From Candidatus Curtissbacteria bacterium (lineage in GTDB: Bacteria > Patescibacteriota > Microgenomatia > Curtissbacterales > GWA2-41-24): a stretch of 64,000 bases of DNA. The translations under genes and the position numbers were made by a program. A model generated the notes under the pieces. The model ran no database searches. It was not told where the DNA came from and was given only the letters and a program-made list of their open reading frames with translations. Shown here piece by piece: positions 7,594-58,727 of this stretch. Location of the stretch: positions 50,038-114,037 of the forward strand of contig JAUSJC010000007.1 of NCBI GenBank assembly GCA_030647775.1. The letters run 5' to 3'. How positions within the stretch are numbered: the first letter of the stretch is position 1; the number at the start of each line of letters is the position of its first letter.

Positions 7594-8277
7594 CTACACC
7601 AGGGGTTTTTGGCCGCTTTCCTTGAAATCGTCAAGGAATTTTTTGAGGCCGATATCGGTTAGCGGATGCTTTACCAATTTCTCCAGTACATCGTAAGGGC
7701 AGGTGGCAATGTCGGCACTGGCAAGGGCCGCTTGTTTTACATGAAGCGGAGAGCGCACGGACGCAAAAAGGATTTTGGTTTTGAAGCCGTAATTATCGTA
7801 GATTTGGCGGATTTCATCTATCAGGTCAATTCCGGTTTGGCCGATATCATCAAGCCTGCCGATAAAGGGGCTGACAATATAGGCGCCAAGTTTGGCAACA
7901 AGAAGTGCCTGGTTGGCGCTAAACACAAGGGTCATGTTAACTCGGATGCCAGTCTTGGTCAAAACCTTTAGCGCTTTTAGGCCTTCTTCTGTTGTCGGTA
8001 ATTTGATGACTACGTTTTTACCCATTTTTGTCAAGGCTCTCCCCTCTCGGATCATGCCCGGGGCGTCGGTTGATAAAACTTCGAGGCTGATATTATCGGG
8101 AACAATTTTGAGGATTTTGGCGACAGCTTCTTTGTAGGTCATCCCGGCTTTTGCCGCTAAGGATGGGTTTGTAGTCACGCCGTCGATTATTCCAAGAGCC
8201 ATCATCTTTTCAACTTCTTGGGGTACGGCGCTATCAATGTAAAGCTGCATGAGAGGATTTATTGTATCAAGTATCAT
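7594..8277 (-). CDS. transaldolase / fructose-6-phosphate aldolase family
   Basis: 'IDGVTTNPSL' and 'IKLP' lysine region typical of the short TalC/FSA family; -35 TTGACA on the minus strand about 25 nt upstream of the ATG. Confidence 0.8.
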   Translation of the reverse strand: MILDTINPLMQLYIDSAVPQEVEKMMALGIIDGVTTNPSLAAKAGMTYKEAVAKILKIVPDNISLEVLSTDAPGMIREGRALTKMGKNVVIKLPTTEEGLKALKVLTKTGIRVNMTLVFSANQALLVAKLGAYIVSPFIGRLDDIGQTGIDLIDEIRQIYDNYGFKTKILFASVRSPLHVKQAALASADIATCPYDVLEKLVKHPLTDIGLKKFLDDFKESGQKPLV

Positions 8278-12279: not shown

Positions 12280-12368
12280 TCCTGCCGACGAGATTCGAAC
12301 TCGCAAAAACCGTGTCACGGGTTAGTAGCTTGATAGGCCACCGCGTCTACCAGTTGCGCCACAGCAGG
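12280..12368 (-). tRNA. class II (long variable arm) tRNA of uncertain identity, embedded in a 13-bp leader/trailer inverted repeat
   Basis: Acceptor CCUGCUG/CGGCAGG, 3-bp D-stem with GG D-loop, variable stem-loop CCGU-GAC-ACGG, T-loop GAGTTCGAATCTC. The best fold gives anticodon loop CUAUCAA (formal anticodon AUC), which matches no Leu/Ser/Tyr/Sec isoacceptor. Confidence 0.5.
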
Positions 12369-12827: not shown

Positions 12828-14075
12828 TTAGTTCATATGTTTTTGGAGTGCAGGTCGAAGAACTAGGCCGATTACCGTTAGTATTAACCCTAAAATTATA
12901 AATATTGTTGTAACATCTAGCCTTTCGGTAAGCAGGGCTACCAGCAAGACCGGTATAGGGGTTATGGCAGATGCGGAAATTGTAACCAGCGAAAAAACTC
13001 TCCCCATCATTGTTTCGGGTGTATTTTGCTGCAAGACGGTTCTGGCATGAACCGCTACAAATACTGCGGCCACGCCAATTATGGTCGCCGACGCCATTGT
13101 CACCAGTCGAAGTATTGTAACGCCTGTTGGTTGACCTGCTAGAAGTTGTGCGCTCAACCCTAAGCTGAGCAATACCAAACCAAAAGTAATGACCCCTAAG
13201 AAGATGGAGTGACCCCTTTTCCACCACTTTTCGATATAACCCATTATTGCTACGCCAAGTCCCAGGCCGGCAATAAGCGGAATCACCAAGAAATAACTAG
13301 TGGAAGTTGCCGGCAGGTCTAGATATTGTTTGACGTAACCAATAAACAGAATCGCCAGCATGCCAATGTTGAATTCCATAATTGTTAGCAAAATGATTGG
13401 GATGGAAATGCCATGATTTTTCTTGGTGACGGAAAGGACGTCGCGGGTTAGGATTAAAGTGCGCATAAATATCTGTTTCCTAATCACCCCGGGACGTGCC
13501 GACTCGATAGTGTGGAGACTAAGTCTCAGGAAAAAGCCGATAGCGGTTAGTATTCCCGCGATTATGAAAGCTGCTTTAAACCCTTCGTTTCCGCCGCCGA
13601 ACAATTGGATGACAGGCCCGGCCGCCGCGTAACCTAGCATGACAGAACCAAGTTGAGTAAAGAGAAATAAGGAATTGGCCTGTGCCAATTTTTCTCCTTT
13701 TACCAGTAGTGGAATCGTTGCGGCTTCGGCAGGTGTAAAAAATTGCGAAACCGAGGCGGTTACAAAGGCAATTGCCAGTAAGCCCCAAACGCTGTGAATG
13801 CTAAACGCGTAAAGAATGAATAGCAAACTTAAGGCAAGGTCTGTTACAAGCATAAGCTTCTTGCGATTTGTCATATCGACTATCGAGCCGGCAAAAAAGC
13901 CTACAAAGAATGCCGGGAGCGTCATTGCCGCATAAAACTGCGCCAGTGCAAAGCGGGAATTTGTCAGTTGGCTGATAAGCAGCAGCGCCGTGAAGTTACA
14001 CATGTTAAAGGCAATTTGGAGAAGAACCTGGTTACCCCAAAGTTTTAAAAATTGGCTGTTTTTAAGTATTTCCAT
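12828..14075 (-). CDS. MFS transporter
   Basis: 415 aa, 12 predicted TM helices, MFS-type 'G...R...R' motif between TM2 and TM3. Confidence 0.75.
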   Translation of the reverse strand: MEILKNSQFLKLWGNQVLLQIAFNMCNFTALLLISQLTNSRFALAQFYAAMTLPAFFVGFFAGSIVDMTNRKKLMLVTDLALSLLFILYAFSIHSVWGLLAIAFVTASVSQFFTPAEAATIPLLVKGEKLAQANSLFLFTQLGSVMLGYAAAGPVIQLFGGGNEGFKAAFIIAGILTAIGFFLRLSLHTIESARPGVIRKQIFMRTLILTRDVLSVTKKNHGISIPIILLTIMEFNIGMLAILFIGYVKQYLDLPATSTSYFLVIPLIAGLGLGVAIMGYIEKWWKRGHSIFLGVITFGLVLLSLGLSAQLLAGQPTGVTILRLVTMASATIIGVAAVFVAVHARTVLQQNTPETMMGRVFSLVTISASAITPIPVLLVALLTERLDVTTIFIILGLILTVIGLVLRPALQKHMN

Positions 14076-14107
14076 AAACTAAGAATAGAATAGCGTGAGT
14101 AAATTGT

Positions 14108-14314
14108 CTAGAATCGCGCCTGTTGGATTACGAACCTCAATTTTTGTTCGTAAAGATCAAGATAACTGCGGTACTCACAGATTTGTTTTAGCGCTTGGAT
14201 ATCGTCGGCAGTTGGAGTCTTTGCTGATTTGTATAAGCTAAAGATGGGGGACAAATTGTACATTGAGGATAACACAGGGACAACTACTACCTTCATAGTT
14301 CGTGAAAGTCGCAT
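14108..14314 (-). pseudogene. 3' fragment of a matrixin-like metalloprotease gene (partial duplicate of 17865..18785)
   Basis: 'TPTADDIQALKQICEYRSYLDLYEQKLRFVIQQ' matches the C-terminus 'IPTADDIQALETICQNRSYFDLYMQRLNFVISQ' of the full-length gene. Confidence 0.55.
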
Positions 14315-14420
14315 CTATGATCCTGGGCTTGCAGGTGATGTTTTCAGTCGCAGCGATGGGACTTATTTAAACCTTATTACTTGCGATGGAGTATGGGACG
14401 GAGTTAAAAAAAAGCTATAA
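14229..14420 (+). pseudogene. 3' fragment of a sortase gene (partial duplicate of 17222..17956)
   Basis: 'GDKLYIEDNTGTTTTFIVRESRIYDPG...DVFSRSDGTYLNLITCDGVWDG' matches the sortase C-terminus including the TLxTC catalytic Cys; no N-terminal half is present. Confidence 0.55.
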
Positions 14421-14469
14421 CAAACGTTTGGTGGTATTTGCTAGGACCCTTTAGGGGTATAATAAATAT

Positions 14470-14811
14470 ATGGCAACTCTAATTTTTACTGTTTTATTTG
14501 GACTCATTATTGCCTTTTTTGCTACTCAAAACACAGCTGTTATCTCACTTAAATTCTTAAACTACCAAATACCTGGTATTCCTACCTATATTGTAGTAGT
14601 TGGTGCGCTTCTTGTTGGACTGTTTCTTTCCTGGATTATTAGTTTTGTAAACGATATAGCAACTGGTTTTACTATGCGGGGGAAAGACAGCAAAATTAAA
14701 GACTACAAAAAAGAGAATGCCGAATTACTCAAGTTAAACCATCAATTAGAACTTGAAAATACCAGACTTAAGGCAGAAACAGATGCCCCTTCAGATGATA
14801 AATCCTTGTGA
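14470..14811 (+). CDS. LapA/DUF1049-like single-pass membrane protein with C-terminal coiled coil
   Basis: Two N-terminal TM helices followed by a 'KLNHQLELENTRLK' coiled-coil tail. Confidence 0.5.
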   Translation: MATLIFTVLFGLIIAFFATQNTAVISLKFLNYQIPGIPTYIVVVGALLVGLFLSWIISFVNDIATGFTMRGKDSKIKDYKKENAELLKLNHQLELENTRLKAETDAPSDDKSL

Positions 14812-15281
14812 AAACTATTCTTGCTAAAGCCTGGCGTGTTCTGTCTCTTACTAAAGGTATTCAGCTTTCGCTTATGCGTGTTTTTCAAGACCAATTTCTA
14901 ATTGGGGTAACAGGTATTATTTTTAACAAAAATCAGGAGGTTTTACTCTTTAAACATACCTACCGCCAAACTGCTTGGAGTTTACCTGGCGGATACATTA
15001 AGTCAAAAGAGCATCCTTTTGAGGCACTAGAGCGGGAGATAAAAGAGGAGTCAGGGCTTGTCGTGAGTGCGGAAGAACAACTCAAAATTAGAACTGATAG
15101 AGAAACTTCACGTTTGGATGTAACTGTAGTTGGTCAGTATATTGGAGGAGAATTTAAGAAGTCACATGAAGTTTTGGAATTTGGCTTTTTCTCTTTTGAA
15201 AACCTCCCTTTTATTTCAAAAAATCAACTATTATTGATTGAGTATACCTTGCACAATAAAACTCCGCAGGTTGCAACTTAA
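14808..15281 (+). CDS. NUDIX hydrolase
   Basis: Nudix box 'GGYIKSKEHPFEALEREIKEESGL' (Gx5Ex7REUxEExGU). Confidence 0.8.
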   Translation: MKTILAKAWRVLSLTKGIQLSLMRVFQDQFLIGVTGIIFNKNQEVLLFKHTYRQTAWSLPGGYIKSKEHPFEALEREIKEESGLVVSAEEQLKIRTDRETSRLDVTVVGQYIGGEFKKSHEVLEFGFFSFENLPFISKNQLLLIEYTLHNKTPQVAT

Positions 15282-15514
15282 GCTGTTTAGATAATTTATT
15301 GGTATAATCTCACCTAGTTTCTTTTCTTGCTCAGGATTTGGTTCTGGCGGTGGAGTTTGATCTGCTGGTTAGTTTGGATCGTCTGGCATGATTCCAGTCT
15401 AGCACAGAATCGGCCAGAATGATGGAAATTAGCCGACTGCCATCATCCTCTCTAAATTTTCTGTTGCGTACGGAATTGAGTTCGAATTTTTCGATAAAGG
15501 TCGACTGGTTATGT

Positions 15515-15841
15515 TTATTCTTTACGTGATGCTCCCTGAAAAATATAGAAAGCAAGGCTCAAAATAATGGCAATAATAAAAATATTTGAAAGCCCGGCAA
15601 TTTGAAGAATGCCAATTGTTGAAAGTATCCAAAATAGCAATAGTATCGACGCAATTTCTCGAAACGGTTTAGGTAATATACCAATTGCCCAACCAACGGC
15701 AAGAAGAATCAGCACATTCCAAAGTGTAATTTGATAATTGTTTATGGAGATCAATTCAATATTTGGAATATGGATTACACCGTTTGGGACGTAGCCTAAA
15801 AACCAAAGAATAATAATTATTGCTAAAATTGCGGATAACAT
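15515..15841 (-). CDS. hypothetical small membrane protein
   Basis: 108 aa, three hydrophobic helices. Confidence 0.4.
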   Translation of the reverse strand: MLSAILAIIIILWFLGYVPNGVIHIPNIELISINNYQITLWNVLILLAVGWAIGILPKPFREIASILLLFWILSTIGILQIAGLSNIFIIAIILSLAFYIFQGASRKE

Positions 15842-16028
15842 ATGTGTACTACTTTATGTGAGTTAGCGGTAATTATATAACTTAAATTTAATATACGTCA
15901 AAATAACCTCTGATTTCGTTTTTCTTGACAAAATTAAGCAGGTAGTGTACCCTATAACATCTACTGCCTCATTTCTGTTTTTCTGCCTCAAAGTTAGAAA
16001 TTTTGCAAAACTAAAAAATTTTAAAAGG

Positions 16029-17225
16029 ATGAAGCCTATTTTAGTATCGCTATTTATTATTTTAATGGGGTTTGTTTTTATGCCTTTGCCGAAAGCATAT
16101 GCATACTCAAATCCGGCTGCTGTTCCACTGGGAACTGTTTCTAATTTTGCCGCTCTGGCTAAGACCTCGATTACCTCCCCGACAGGCCCGACTGTACTCA
16201 ATAATGGAGATTTAGGCATAGACAGCCCCGGTACGTGTACCGATTTTGCAACTCCCTGTTCTGCGCCGAATGCTAACGGAACGATAAACAGCGGTGCGAT
16301 TCAATTCCAAAATGCGGTTGCACTGCAGGGCCAGACGGATGCAACTGCGGCTATTACCAATATTGGTTTAAGAGTAGCCGATGACACACTTCTAGCTCAA
16401 CTTGGCGGTTAAACCTTAAATCAAGGCGTTTACGATGTGCCGGCTGCTGCGACTAATTTGACCGGGGATCTCACTTTAAATGGTGATGCCAGTTCCGTCT
16501 TTATCTTCCATTTGACATCCACTCTTATTACAGATAACGGAAGTAGAGTACTTCTTACCGGAGGGGCGCAAGCTTGCAATGTATTCTGGAAAGTTGATTC
16601 ATCGGCTACATTTAATGGAACCACAACGATGGTCGGAACCGTTTTGGCTTTGGCGGATATTACTTTTCCTGGAGGCGGAGCAACTTTAGATGGAAGAGTA
16701 GTTGCCCAAACGGGAGCGATCACTTTTAACAACACGACTATAAATAACTCCTCATGTGCTTCTACCAGCTCCAGTACTAGTTCCAGTTCCGGCGGATCAT
16801 CTACTTCAGTTTTTACTCCACTCAATAGCGGAATAATTGCCCCAACTATAATAGAATCAAAAAGAATCAGCCCAACGAGTGTTTTTATCAGCTGGGGACC
16901 ATATTCGGGAATAGATACTTTTATCATTCAGTATGGTCTTGAAAACGGGAATTGGTTATACAGCACCAACGTCACGGGGTTCTCAACCACCATCAATGCT
17001 CTACCTTCGAATCAACCCATCTGGTTTAGGATCGCAGCTAGAAACAGTCAATCAATAGGAAAGTACGGTGAGGCAAAACTTGTCGGAGGGCCGAGTCTGC
17101 CAAGTGCAGGATTTGCTCCCCGCGAGAATAATATTCCATGGTATATTCCGGTTGGTGTCGGCACCGCGTTTTTGGCCTCTTTACTTGTAATTCAAAGAAA
17201 ACGCAAACTGTCATTGGGAAGTTGA
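16029..17225 (+). pseudogene. DUF3494 (ice-binding-like) surface protein with C-terminal FN3-like region and sorting-signal-like tail, interrupted by an in-frame TAA at 16410..16412
   Basis: Signal peptide 'MKPILVSLFIILMGFVFMPLPKAYA'; 'LGTVSNFAALA...TGPTVLNNGDLG' and 'GAQACNVFWKVDSSATF' IBP beta-helix motifs continue in the same frame on both sides of the TAA; the C-terminus is 'LPSAG', a hydrophobic stretch, then 'QRKRK'. Confidence 0.7.
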
Positions 17226-17956
17226 AGGATTACGTCCAGCGGCCACTTCTAATAATTACGTTTACCGTATTTTCTCTATTTCTTCTTTTTCATATTGCCC
17301 CTGGCAGTAGCACAAAATCGGTACCTCAAAGCAAAGTAGCAAATAGTGTTTTTTTTAGCAAGGATTCTGCGGGATTGCCGATGCGTCTTTTGATACCTGC
17401 AATTAATGTTAATGCCGCTATTTTGCATCTGGGTGTTACTTCCGGTGGACAGATGGAAGTTCCGGATAATGCTGTCGATGTCGGTTGGTTTAAGTTGGGA
17501 CCGCGACCTGGAGAGATAGGCAGTGCTGTTATTTCTGGGCACTTTGACGGGAAAAATGGTGAAGAGGGAGTGTTTACTAATTTGAATAAGTTGACAGAAG
17601 GTGACAAATTATATGTTGAAGACGGTAGAGGAACATATAAAGCTTTCGTAGTCAGTGGGAGCCGCGCTTATGACCCCGGATATGCTGACGATGTTTTTAG
17701 TCGAAATGATGGTGCTCACCTAAATTTTATTACCTGTGGCGGAGTTTGGGATAATAATAAAAAAAGCTATACGGAAAGATTAGTAATATTTACAGATGCA
17801 AGCATTTATGAAAGTTGGGGTTATAAGATGAAAAGTACCCTGCAAAATACACGGTTGACCGGTTCTACCTTATCCCAAGATTCTTTTGGAGCTGGCTTAT
17901 TACAAAGTTTAGCCTTTGCATATAAAGGTCAAAATAGCTTCTATTTTGGCAAATAG
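17222..17956 (+). CDS. sortase family transpeptidase
   Basis: N-terminal TM anchor, conserved His in 'ISGHFDG', 'LNFITCGG' (TLxTC) catalytic Cys, downstream Arg. Probable TTG start at 17222 overlapping the upstream stop; the ORF-track start at 17138 is likely an over-extension. Confidence 0.7.
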   Translation: MKDYVQRPLLIITFTVFSLFLLFHIAPGSSTKSVPQSKVANSVFFSKDSAGLPMRLLIPAINVNAAILHLGVTSGGQMEVPDNAVDVGWFKLGPRPGEIGSAVISGHFDGKNGEEGVFTNLNKLTEGDKLYVEDGRGTYKAFVVSGSRAYDPGYADDVFSRNDGAHLNFITCGGVWDNNKKSYTERLVIFTDASIYESWGYKMKSTLQNTRLTGSTLSQDSFGAGLLQSLAFAYKGQNSFYFGK

Positions 17957-18785
17957 TTTCGAGCGCTTGGATATCGTCGGCAGTTGGAATGATTTGCTGA
18001 TTGGTATTGGCGTGCATGATGGACTTTTTGTTTTGCAGGTGGCCGAGACCAATAGCATGGCCAAGTTCATGGGCGATGGTGTGCACCAGCTCCTTTTTGT
18101 TGACGTTGAAGTAAATTTCGATTTTACTAGTGTTTGGGTCGTAGATTCCCTCTTCCGGTTTGACGGCAAGTTCTTGGTTAAAAGTATTAATAGTCCGGTT
18201 TAATTGGTTAACATTGGTGTTAAAGAGCTGGGCTGATTGGTTTAGAGACTCCGCCATTTTATTTAAGCGGTCGGCATCAGCTTTTAGGTCTTCCTGCTGT
18301 TTTAATAATTTTTCGTATTCGTCTTTCGGCGCCCCGCCTTTAGAATTCCAATAGTCTATTTGATAATTCAGGTCGGCAAGTTTTACCTTAAAGTCGGCCG
18401 ATTCTTTTTCATACTGGGTAAGACTGGGTTTAAGAGTGCTTTCCTGGCTCTGGACTTGGCCTTGAAGGTTCGTTATTTGTTTATTTAAAGATTGCCTCTG
18501 GTCATAAACAAGGCTGATCGTCAGTTTACCCCGGGGGTCATAGGCAAAAAGGTCTTTACCCTGCACACTCTCCCAAATTTCTGCGGCTTCTTCAACATTC
18601 CGGGTGAATTCGTCACGGCTTAAATTAAACCTGTTATCTACGGCATCAATCCGGAATTGGATAGGTTTGTCGCAGGGCGAAAAATATAGGAATTTTGTCC
18701 TGTCGGAATACGGAAGGCTGACTACTCTTAAGAAAATGGCGGCAATGGCAACTAAAATTGTCAGCTGCAACAGGACTTTTTTCAT
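17865..18785 (-). CDS. matrixin-like (M10) zinc metalloprotease with N-terminal TM anchor and coiled-coil region
   Basis: 'HELGHAIGLGH' HExxHxxGxxH plus 'SIMH' Met-turn; convergent with the sortase gene and overlapping its 3' end by about 90 nt. Confidence 0.7.
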   Translation of the reverse strand: MKKVLLQLTILVAIAAIFLRVVSLPYSDRTKFLYFSPCDKPIQFRIDAVDNRFNLSRDEFTRNVEEAAEIWESVQGKDLFAYDPRGKLTISLVYDQRQSLNKQITNLQGQVQSQESTLKPSLTQYEKESADFKVKLADLNYQIDYWNSKGGAPKDEYEKLLKQQEDLKADADRLNKMAESLNQSAQLFNTNVNQLNRTINTFNQELAVKPEEGIYDPNTSKIEIYFNVNKKELVHTIAHELGHAIGLGHLQNKKSIMHANTNQQIIPTADDIQALETICQNRSYFDLYMQRLNFVISQLQKNLGIR

Positions 18786-18851
18786 CTGTAAGAATTTTAA
18801 AGGAATAGTTTGTACTTGGCAATTGGTTAGCCGCTCATTTAAACTTGAAGA

Positions 18852-19622
18852 ATGAGACTCAAGTTTCTGCAGGTCAATATTTTCAGGGGAAAGTTTTTAG
18901 GCTCGCTTTTAGATTTTATAGAAAAGGTAGACCCGGATATTATTACGATGCAGGAGGTTTCTTGCGGGGAGATAAATTTATATGAGGACAAAAAAGCTGA
19001 CCTTTTCGAACTTATAAAGGGAAAAACAGGATATGACGGAGTTTTCCATTCGGATACAAGCCTTTCAGGCAGTCCTTTTTCGCGATTTGGAAATGGGGTT
19101 TTTAGCAAATGGCCTATTAACAGTTCAGCAGTTGTACCTCTAGCAACTTATGGATCTTTGACTTTAGATGAGTTTAATAATAACAAGGGTGACGTTTGGG
19201 CAAGACTATCCCGCCATATGTTGGACGCGGAAATTGAAATAGAAGGGAAGGCTGTGCATGCAATTTCGATCCATGGTAGAAGAATTGCGCCGCCGCTAGA
19301 TGACCCGGAGAATATTCGTCAGGCGCATGTGATGGCAAACCATTTAAAATCCTTTGGTGATAAGCCGTTTATTGTCGGAGGGGATTTTAATATGCCTCCG
19401 GGAACTGAAGTTATAAAAATTGTTTCGTCTGTTGCTAGTAACTTAATGGCCGACTGCGGGGTAAAACAGACCTTAAACCCGCAGGAACATGAGCTCGGGG
19501 AAAAAGGTTACTTGGTTGATTTTATCTTTACCTCGAAGCATTTTAAGAAGATTTCTTTGGAGGTACCGCAAGTGACGGTTTCGGACCATTTGCCGGTTGT
19601 GGCAGAGTTGGAAATGCTTTGA
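18852..19622 (+). CDS. endonuclease/exonuclease/phosphatase (EEP) family protein
   Basis: 'LQVNIF...DPDIITMQEV' N-terminal motif and C-terminal 'SDHLPV' His. Confidence 0.75.
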   Translation: MRLKFLQVNIFRGKFLGSLLDFIEKVDPDIITMQEVSCGEINLYEDKKADLFELIKGKTGYDGVFHSDTSLSGSPFSRFGNGVFSKWPINSSAVVPLATYGSLTLDEFNNNKGDVWARLSRHMLDAEIEIEGKAVHAISIHGRRIAPPLDDPENIRQAHVMANHLKSFGDKPFIVGGDFNMPPGTEVIKIVSSVASNLMADCGVKQTLNPQEHELGEKGYLVDFIFTSKHFKKISLEVPQVTVSDHLPVVAELEML

Positions 19623-19778
19623 TAAAATACTCTCCTGATTTATAATTGTTTTGCGGGGTGTGGTTCAATATACAGTGCCATGCGGTTCTCGTTCTGCAAT
19701 GCAGAACTGTGGGCCTAGGTAGAATGCGGGATTAGTTGATCGGCTCAACATTCGCTTTCCCCGCCTGCCAGAGCCTAT

Positions 19779-19849
19779 GCGGGTGTAGTTCAATGGTAGA
19801 ACACCAGTTTTCCAAACTGGATACGGCAGTTCGATTCTGCTCACCCGCT
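19779..19849 (+). tRNA. tRNA-Gly(TCC)
   Basis: Acceptor GCGGGTG, anticodon loop UUUCCAA, T-loop GTTCGATTC. Confidence 0.8.
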
Positions 19850-22914: not shown

Positions 22915-23000
22915 AAAGTACCGGGTGCAGGCAAGCGGAGCTGTACCAAAAAAATCCGAAGTGCTATTGCCCTGAGTTTATCGAATGGGCTAAAATTAGC
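22915..23000. repeat. 87-bp direct repeat, copy 1 (promoter/5'UTR-like), upstream of the DUF4258 toxin gene
   Basis: Shares 'ATCCGAAGTGCTATTGCCCTGAGTTTATCGAATGGGCTAAAATTAGC' (47/47) with 23583..23667, and the upstream 40 nt at about 80% identity. Confidence 0.7.
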
Positions 23001-23011
23001 CAACTTAGACG

Positions 23012-23266
23012 ATGAAAATTATTTATACACAACATTCGGAAGAAAAACTTAAACGGAGAGATATTAAGAAGTTCAAAATTAATAAAAAACTAATTAAATC
23101 AATTTTAAAAGATCCTCAAATTAAATCCAAAACAAAGTATGGTGATAGCTGCGCCCTGTCAGCTATCAATGGTGACCACGACATAAGAATTATCTATGAT
23201 ATAATAAGTAAAGATAATTCTAAGGTTATAACCTTTCATATCTCTAAAAGAGGCAGGTACGGATGA
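23012..23266 (+). CDS. DUF4258-family toxin (toxin of a DUF4258/DUF2283 TA pair)
   Basis: 'IIYTQHSEEKLKRRDI...IRIIYD...KVITFHISK' matches the DUF4258 pattern; 4-nt overlap (ATGA) with the downstream partner. Confidence 0.55.
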   Translation: MKIIYTQHSEEKLKRRDIKKFKINKKLIKSILKDPQIKSKTKYGDSCALSAINGDHDIRIIYDIISKDNSKVITFHISKRGRYG

Positions 23267-23475
23267 AATTAAAATATTACAAAAAAGACGACATTTTGGT
23301 TATGAATTTTTCCTCAAAAGCTGTTGAGGATTCGTATGAAGTGGAAAGCGCGATTTTAGAAGTCGATAAAGAGAACAATCCTGTATCACTAGAAATTCTG
23401 CATGCTTCCAACTTTTTTAATACAGCCTCCAAAGAACTTCCAATCGGAATCAAGCAAAAATTTTTCTCAGCCTAA
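23263..23475 (+). CDS. DUF2283-family antitoxin
   Basis: 'MKLKYYKKDDILVMNF...VSLEILHASN' matches DUF2283 (consensus 'MKIEYDKEADALYI...GIEILNAS'). Confidence 0.55.
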   Translation: MKLKYYKKDDILVMNFSSKAVEDSYEVESAILEVDKENNPVSLEILHASNFFNTASKELPIGIKQKFFSA

Positions 23476-23582
23476 CTCCTTGCGCTTTCGCACATATCAT
23501 CACAAACTGTGATGATATGGATTAAATACAATCGTAAAAGGTCACCATATATTTTTGCGCTGAGGATTCCCAAAACGCGCCA

Positions 23583-23667
23583 AAGTACCGGGCGCAGGCA
23601 AGCGGCCCTATCCCCAAAAAATCCGAAGTGCTATTGCCCTGAGTTTATCGAATGGGCTAAAATTAGC
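23583..23667. repeat. 87-bp direct repeat, copy 2, upstream of the 732-aa ORF
   Basis: See copy 1. Confidence 0.7.
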
Positions 23668-58016: not shown

Positions 58017-58727
58017 CTAGAAATAGGTGAGACTACGGGCCATGTCTTCGAGAACTTTCCCGCTTGAATCCGCATCTTCTTTGGCATCCTGCTGCTGGTA
58101 AATGATCACAATCGGATTTTGGGCATCGGGAATTAAAAAGGTTATTTGGGAAAAGCCTTTTGTCGTTGAACCTCTACCCGTAGTTTGCGCCTTTACTTTT
58201 TGGACGGACTTTCCATTAACTTCAATATTCTGGCTAGTGACGATGATTTGGAGGTCATTGGGATTTTGGTAGTAACCTACGGTTCCCTGCCAATCTTCGG
58301 GTTTGATGACCTCAAGATATATGGGGGTGAATTGGATATCGGTATCGGCCGGGACCGTAAAAGAGTAAGGGGCGAAGTAATTACATTTCTGACTGTCGTC
58401 GTTATAGGTAGTAAACCAGTCTTTGGGATAAGAGACGCTAAAGCCGTAAGTAGCGTTGGAGCAAAGCTTAACGTAGGAAGCAATGATTGAGTTTGATTGG
58501 GTGTCGGCGGCGGGAATCGGGCTGTCGATCGGCGCGATTGGCCCGGCTTTTGTGGTTGCGCCGCGAACGTTAAGGAGCGAAGCGACGTTTTGCCGAATGG
58601 ATGTTGACCCCAAAAGAAAAAACCCCAATCCGTACAAGGCCATAAAAGTAACTGCGAGTGTGATTTTGGAATGTTTTTTAAAAGAAGATAGAGTCAACTT
58701 TGATTCCTTAGCTTGATAGCCTAACAC
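58017..58727 (-). CDS. hypothetical secreted / membrane-anchored protein
   Basis: N-terminal TM/signal segment, 236 aa, no family. Confidence 0.4.
   Translation of the reverse strand: MLGYQAKESKLTLSSFKKHSKITLAVTFMALYGLGFFLLGSTSIRQNVASLLNVRGATTKAGPIAPIDSPIPAADTQSNSIIASYVKLCSNATYGFSVSYPKDWFTTYNDDSQKCNYFAPYSFTVPADTDIQFTPIYLEVIKPEDWQGTVGYYQNPNDLQIIVTSQNIEVNGKSVQKVKAQTTGRGSTTKGFSQITFLIPDAQNPIVIIYQQQDAKEDADSSGKVLEDMARSLTYF

Follow-up and report, generated by a model that had tools for sequence, protein, structure and literature searches.

The window analysed here, a 64-kb stretch of DNA from a Candidatus Curtissbacteria MAG (CPR/Microgenomates), contains a gene for a DUF3494/ice-binding-like, sortase-anchored surface protein that is most probably a recent nonsense pseudogene (Q128*, CAA to TAA). 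The gene (16029..17225, + strand) comprises 398 codons, from the ATG at 16029 to the terminal TGA at 17223..17225, and its translation shows exactly one internal stop, the TAA at codon 128 (16410..16412), derived from a Gln codon CAA through a C-to-T change at 16410. The disabling stop lies in an otherwise conserved open-reading frame, orthologs of which are intact, and the change looks like an ordinary gene-killing mutation and not like a special coding mechanism. The original prediction had offered four options for the interruption, of which a fresh pseudogene fits best, while phase variation, programmed readthrough and an assembly error all fit poorly.

The main value of this assignment is the correction of the annotation. 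The NCBI record splits one gene with an internal stop into two proteins, both located on one 117,946-nt contig. The N-terminal fragment as translated, of 127 residues (16029..16412, + strand), is MDO8486999.1, a “hypothetical protein” identified by exact look-up, and the C-terminal fragment of 262 residues (16437..17225, + strand), which starts from a GTG and has no signal peptide, is MDO8487000.1, an “ice-binding family protein” (100% identical to P0008). As one gene is recorded as a 127-aa and a 262-aa protein, small errors have entered the family counts and the inventory of surface proteins of this MAG.

The disrupted gene and its protein

The translation across the site reads DTLLAQLGG, stop, TLNQGVYDVPAAATNLTGDLTLNG, with codon 128 flanked as LGG-x-TLNQGVYDVPAAATNLTGDLTLNGDASSVF and the stop sitting within GGT TAA ACC. 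The coordinates and the peptide reported in the original prediction, which described a DUF3494 gene with a single in-frame TAA, are exact. The GTG at 16437, which was said to reopen the frame, is the next in-frame start after the stop, 24 nt downstream with a weak AAGG upstream, and is the codon at which the 262-aa CDS of NCBI begins.

The protein starts with a predicted signal peptide (residues 1–25, MKPILVSLFIILMGFVFMPLPKAYA; 16029..16103, + strand), read from the sequence, with a putative cleavage-type site between AYA and YS. The DUF3494/Ice_binding β-helix domain comprises residues 43–239 (16155..16745, + strand), as delineated by Pfam, the alignment with PDB entry 6EIO and the AlphaFold model of the ortholog P0002. 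A Ser-rich linker (approximately residues 244–260) joins the β-helix to an FN3-like β-sandwich (approximately residues 271–347; 16839..17069, + strand), which is recognized through a weak Pfam fn3 match (E 0.0085, below the curated cutoff) and in the P0002 model. The C-terminal sorting signal (17097..17222, + strand) consists of LPSAG (residues 357–361; 17097..17111), followed by IPWYIPVGVGTAFLASLLVI and then QRKRK, which provide the hydrophobic segment and the basic tail RKRK. The fourth residue of the motif is Ala and not Thr; L357, P358 and G361 are conserved in an alignment of 50 homologs, and the orthologs have LPNTG or LPNAG at the same position. The suggestion that the intact protein would end in a sortase-type sorting signal is thus borne out by the motif, the hydrophobic segment and the basic tail, and also by the sortase gene located directly after it. 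A regular-expression search for sorting signals over the 64 kb returned the window protein as the only convincing open-reading frame; its one other hit, a 68-aa frame at 58277..58483 (− strand), was rejected, having neither a hydrophobic segment nor a basic tail.

When the stop is repaired, PF11999 matches residues 43–239 over profile positions 2–208 of 208 (E 1e-40, 140.1 bits vs. a cutoff of 28.7), and the solved ice-binding protein 6EIO aligns over the site with residues 31–237 (E 3e-31). The C-terminal piece by itself matches PF11999 only at profile positions 107–208, and the N-terminal piece by itself has no Pfam match. The family consensus is therefore unbroken across the stop, as had been claimed from reading the sequence. 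Since both matches are contiguous over the site, the stop cuts one domain, far beyond what chance would produce, and does not separate two same-frame genes. The term “ice-binding” is a family label and at most a predicted function, and the score against the ice-binding equivalog model NF045625 of NCBIfam is 76.8 bits vs. a cutoff of 400.

The fold was viewed through the AlphaFold model of P0002, which in alignment A2 has 73% identity to the window protein with its stop repaired; the mean pLDDT is 85. This model contains an N-terminal helix (residues 2–23), the counterpart of the signal peptide in the window protein, a β-helix (residues 41–245) with strands in 46–99 and 139–245 and a long α-helix at 102–119, a disordered linker (residues 253–267), a confidently modeled β-sandwich (residues 282–361) and a C-terminal membrane helix (residues 390–414). 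These elements fit the right-handed β-helix with a long α-helix at its side that is expected of the family. The stop corresponds to Q134 of P0002, located directly past the long α-helix and ahead of the main coil stack.

The FN3-like domain of the window protein differs from that of its orthologs by the loss of both cysteines, which almost all orthologs keep. These changes are found at 16806..16812 (residues ~260–261, F-T vs. C-P in orthologs) and 17049..17051 (Q341 vs. the Cys of NxCxIG), and could represent the paired loss of a probable disulfide.

The gene for a sortase, sortase_B (17222..17956, + strand; Pfam Sortase, E 1.4e-20), follows immediately. Its likely start, TTG at 17222, was placed by alignment with ortholog sortases and overlaps the stop codon of the ice-binding-like gene (TTGA). 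The adjacency of the two genes is shared with loci L001, L002 and L084, and the 4-nt overlap with L002 and L084. Sortase_B is full length when compared with its orthologs, and the putative catalytic His, Cys and Arg are present by eye. The best of seven NCBIfam sortase models is that of class F (NF033748), with 114.6 bits vs. a cutoff of 166, which is not reached, and the enzyme is accordingly described as class F-like only. The sortase frame extends ~50 codons beyond the ends of its orthologs (17810..17956) and shares 92 nt with the matrixin gene that converges on it (17865..18785, − strand); it may have lost its ancestral stop codon.

Judging from this domain content and from what is known of LPXTG sorting, the intact protein would be exported by its signal peptide and would display the DUF3494 β-helix and the FN3-like domain on a Ser-rich stalk, the downstream sortase cleaving it at LPSAG and linking the product to the cell wall. 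Following a single C-to-T transition that turned Gln128 (CAA) into TAA, translation would stop after 127 residues, which contain the signal peptide, the first coils and the α-helix and are devoid of most of the β-helix, the FN3-like domain and the anchor. If translation restarts at GTG 16437, the product has no signal peptide and should for this reason be unable to reach the sortase. We infer a loss of function, as both pieces should be non-functional, the 127-residue one being without most of the fold and without the anchor and the 262-residue one having no signal peptide. Translation of the sortase may also drop, since its TTG start overlaps the stop of a frame that is now terminated early.

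Ancestral codon and age of the lesion

A protein search identified 767 relatives (E ≤ 0.001). Many of the best 120 of these are intact and ~400 residues long, and the closest among these 120 show 66–74% identity, most of them being from CPR bacteria of the Microgenomates type. The orthologs share the architecture of signal peptide, DUF3494 β-helix, Ser-rich linker, FN3-like domain, LPNTG or LPNAG motif, hydrophobic segment and basic tail.

The position of the stop is occupied by Gln, in the context L/I-G-G-Q-T-L, in 16 of the 16 closest orthologs that bear GG-x-TL (60–74% identity), and the codon is CAA in all three orthologs for which DNA was fetched. P0025, with 61% identity, has Ala there in a TG-A-TL variant. 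The ancestral codon was therefore the Gln codon CAA and the event a C-to-T transition, CAA to TAA. A Leu codon TTA had originally been suggested as the ancestor, and was dropped in view of these residues and codons; Leu at the position is found only in more distant relatives, where it represents the broad family consensus, and the position is variable further out. The inspection of orthologs advised in the original prediction thus returned Gln at the site in the closest orthologs bearing GG-x-TL, CAA as its codon in the three with DNA, and a stop in none of the relatives. Among 187 tblastn alignments that span residue 128 in 168 fetched loci, one shows a stop there, that of the Logan contig SRR13727527_557291 (L088) from the same genome, and the 186 others show none.

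No strain-level relative was encountered in the protein search, in which, the fragment itself aside, no match exceeded 77% identity, or 74% where over two-thirds of the query was covered. JGI metagenome contigs were scanned for an intact strain-level allele with an exact pattern that had N at the first base of the stop, and gave no match. The best match among GTDB species representatives is a Daviesbacteria MAG with 62% identity; the source genome is not one of the representatives. The look-up of P0008 returned nothing on record, and those of the 127-aa fragment and the sortase returned a single Logan contig only.

The condition of the remainder of the gene was assessed by counts at conserved columns and by pairwise identities and not by dN/dS, as synonymous sites are saturated at the ~70% identity of even the nearest orthologs. 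Of 156 strongly conserved columns, 5 deviate from the consensus in the window protein and 3–24 in the intact orthologs. The 15 nearest orthologs have a mean identity of 69.2% to the window protein, and their own values range from 64.8 to 71.5%. The frame 16029..17225 contains no frameshift and no second stop. As the gene and its sortase are otherwise undamaged, either the mutation happened very recently or the gene continues to be used. The event looks recent, and a gene that is still functional would show the same preservation outside the stop and in the sortase.

Relics of related cassettes

Two older relics lie back to back at 14120..14454, ~2 kb upstream of the disrupted gene. The first is a remnant of a sortase gene (14214..14454, + strand), of which only the 3′ third is present and which is truncated by one surplus A within the A8 run at 14406..14413; with one A removed from this run, the remnant reads through KKSYNKRLVVFARTL to its stop. 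It shows 85% amino acid identity to the sortase of L001 and 62% to sortase_B. The second relic (14120..14215, − strand) consists of 32 codons from near the C-terminus of a matrixin-type metalloprotease, and is 72% identical by tblastn to residues 267–298 of the intact matrixin encoded at 17865..18785 (− strand).

L001 is a 567-kb JGI contig, which contains the intact order of ice-binding-like gene, sortase, LapA and NUDIX. Positions 14214..15271 of the window are 91% identical in nucleotide sequence to positions 7700..8756 of L001, a segment that contains the 3′ third of the sortase gene followed by LapA and NUDIX. The flanks of this block on both sides have no such similarity to L001, and the EEP proteins are only 28% identical. 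The junction at 14120..14454 may be the scar of a deletion or else a patch introduced by recombination. Since the sortase remnant and the LapA–NUDIX block match L001, which keeps the cassette in that place, an earlier cassette of the same kind was probably deleted here. The present cassette is only 70% identical to that of L001 in nucleotide sequence, and is a paralogous copy.

The Logan contig L088 ends at 15276, five bases past the end of the 91%-identical LapA–NUDIX block (15271), its other end being at 19706. There may be a related genome in the sample that shares this block, or structural variation at the 15271/15276 junction. Elsewhere in the window, two 86-nt direct repeats of 93% identity (22915..23000 and 23582..23667) bracket a module of two genes, 23012..23266 and 23263..23475, the latter with a DUF2283 domain; this module (22915..23667) may be a small mobile or toxin-antitoxin-like insert.

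A different kind of damage is seen in P0017 from a related genome (L082, 10001..11215, and L083), in which the frame of the ice-binding-like protein continues directly into the C-terminal part of the sortase, with the sorting signal and the N-terminal part of the sortase missing. The fusion is present on three contigs, and the two named here come from two runs. A cassette of this kind was thus inactivated there independently. Together with the upstream relics, this deletion fusion indicates that modules of an ice-binding-like protein and a sortase are evidently dispensable, and the disrupted gene provides one data point for the expendability of sortase-anchored DUF3494 surface modules in CPR bacteria.

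Alternative explanations and comparison with known systems

The first alternative is that the organism has CAA and that the T at 16410 is a read or consensus error, or a minority allele chosen by both assemblers. L088 (4431 nt), retrieved through a look-up of the neighboring matrixin protein and produced by a different assembly pipeline, is 100% identical to window positions 15276..19706, the TAA included, and the 127-aa fragment is called as a gene on it as well. Only one sequencing run, SRR13727527, carries the genome, and the Logan assembly was thus probably built from the same reads and probably provides no read-level independence. C-to-T is a common type of error and of DNA damage, and the gene is flawless otherwise, which would also suit an artefact. 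However, a random read error cannot dominate a consensus, and two assemblers gave the identical base within 4.4 kb of perfectly matching sequence. The genes of the window are otherwise long and unbroken (45 long open-reading frames, including ones of 979, 756 and 732 residues), which speaks against an error-prone assembly, as an assembly of low accuracy would have left other broken genes. An assembler or polishing error, one of the options originally listed, is largely excluded by the recovery of the TAA from these reads by a second assembler, and an artefact of any of these kinds, a systematic read error or a minor intact CAA allele included, is unlikely.

A second alternative accepts the stop as real and disputes its neutrality. 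The null allele would not be neutral decay but selected or deliberately leaky, and lineages of the Curtissbacteria type would repeatedly switch off their modules of ice-binding-like protein and sortase. Three separate inactivations are in line with this, namely the deleted older upstream cassette, Q128* and the fusion in the relative. Under a leaky reading Q128* would be attenuated and not dead, because UAA replaced a Gln codon and tRNA-Gln, through rare near-cognate decoding, would yield small amounts of protein identical to the wild type. If the loss were shown to be selected, it would point to these surface proteins as targets of phage or host pressure, and the switch-off could, for example, allow escape from phage or change the attachment to the host. 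We consider this reading quite improbable, and loss through an ordinary recent nonsense mutation is preferred.

Readthrough of the stop, leaky or programmed, would have tRNA-Gln(UUG) or a suppressor restore Gln and would yield some, possibly regulated, full-length anchored protein. Near-cognate decoding of UAA does insert Gln among other residues, the window encodes a tRNA-Gln(ttg), and no damage is seen in the frame past the stop, in the sorting signal or in the sortase. However, both release factors recognize UAA, which is the stop least prone to leakage, and TAA is also the main genuine stop in the window, terminating 24 of the 45 long open-reading frames, 11 of them in the context TAA-A, the most frequent of the four-base contexts. 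None of the 186 other alignments shows the stop, and the 126 nt around and downstream of it are less stable than shuffled sequences (z = +1.67), showing no stimulatory RNA structure. An Rfam scan of the window found tRNAs only; the nine tRNAs include tRNA-Gln(ttg) and tRNA-Leu(taa) and none with the anticodon UUA of a suppressor. The genome beyond the window, which covers 64 kb of the 118-kb contig, could encode a suppressor tRNA or intact paralogs. Readthrough of either form is very unlikely on this evidence, and the programmed variant among the original options finds no favor.

Genome-wide recoding of TAA was rejected in view of the same usage of TAA as a terminator. No other gene of the window contains a stop that interrupts a domain. 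The remaining same-frame pairs of open-reading frames of similar size in the window proved to be distinct neighboring genes or antisense artefacts; the distinct genes, named by eye, are an HTH protein and a putative ImmA-like peptidase, and an acyltransferase-like protein and UvrB. One of the nine tRNAs is odd, an 89-nt molecule (12280..12368, − strand) with a long variable arm (type II body), the anticodon loop CUAUCAA and the anticodon AUC. It is reported by ARAGORN as tRNA-Asp(atc), has the lowest Rfam score of the nine (42.5 bits) and is not a UAA suppressor.

The least probable account is that of a phase-variable or split gene, with programmed on/off expression or two working polypeptides (a secreted one of 127 residues and one of 262 residues from GTG 16437): surface proteins are common targets of phase variation and the GTG with its weak AAGG lies shortly past the stop, but the cut falls inside a single β-helix domain, the split is found in no relative, the restarted piece cannot reach an extracytoplasmic sortase, and the site has neither a homopolymer nor a short tandem repeat, with no inverted repeats bracketing a promoter and no invertible element, the repeats in 13500..19800 being only weak and scattered. 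Mutagenesis of the DGR type was also rejected, as the change is C-to-T and not at an adenine and there is no template repeat nearby.

The intact form of the gene can be compared with the DUF3494 or type 1 ice-binding proteins (PF11999; EfcIBP, PDB code 6EIO). The profile and the 6EIO structure are matched over their full length, and the P0002 model has the same layout as the canonical one of first coil, long α-helix and β-coil stack (PMC11645318). Unlike in these proteins, the domain of the window forms part of a fusion with a Ser-rich linker, an FN3-like domain and an LPxTG-type cell-wall anchor, and the gene comes from a CPR bacterium and is truncated at codon 128. No literature linking DUF3494 with sortase or with CPR bacteria was found, nor any mention of the accessions.

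The organization of the cassette is similar to that of LPXTG proteins with a dedicated sortase in Gram-positive bacteria. The substrate has the signal peptide, the LPxxG motif, the hydrophobic segment and the basic tail, and the sortase gene is located directly downstream with a start that overlaps the stop of the substrate gene, a pairing also present in L001, L002 and L084. The differences are the LPSAG motif with Ala in place of the usual Thr, also seen as LPNAG in several orthologs, the score of the sortase below the class F cutoff, and anchoring that in Curtissbacteria is predicted from genes.

Natural premature-stop alleles of LPXTG surface proteins are represented by the truncated inlA alleles in Listeria monocytogenes. 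As in those alleles, one nonsense substitution would remove the C-terminal anchor of the sortase substrate while the sortase and the locus stay intact. Unlike in those alleles, the stop in the window comes early, inside the first domain, and for this reason a secreted functional ectodomain is unlikely to be made here.
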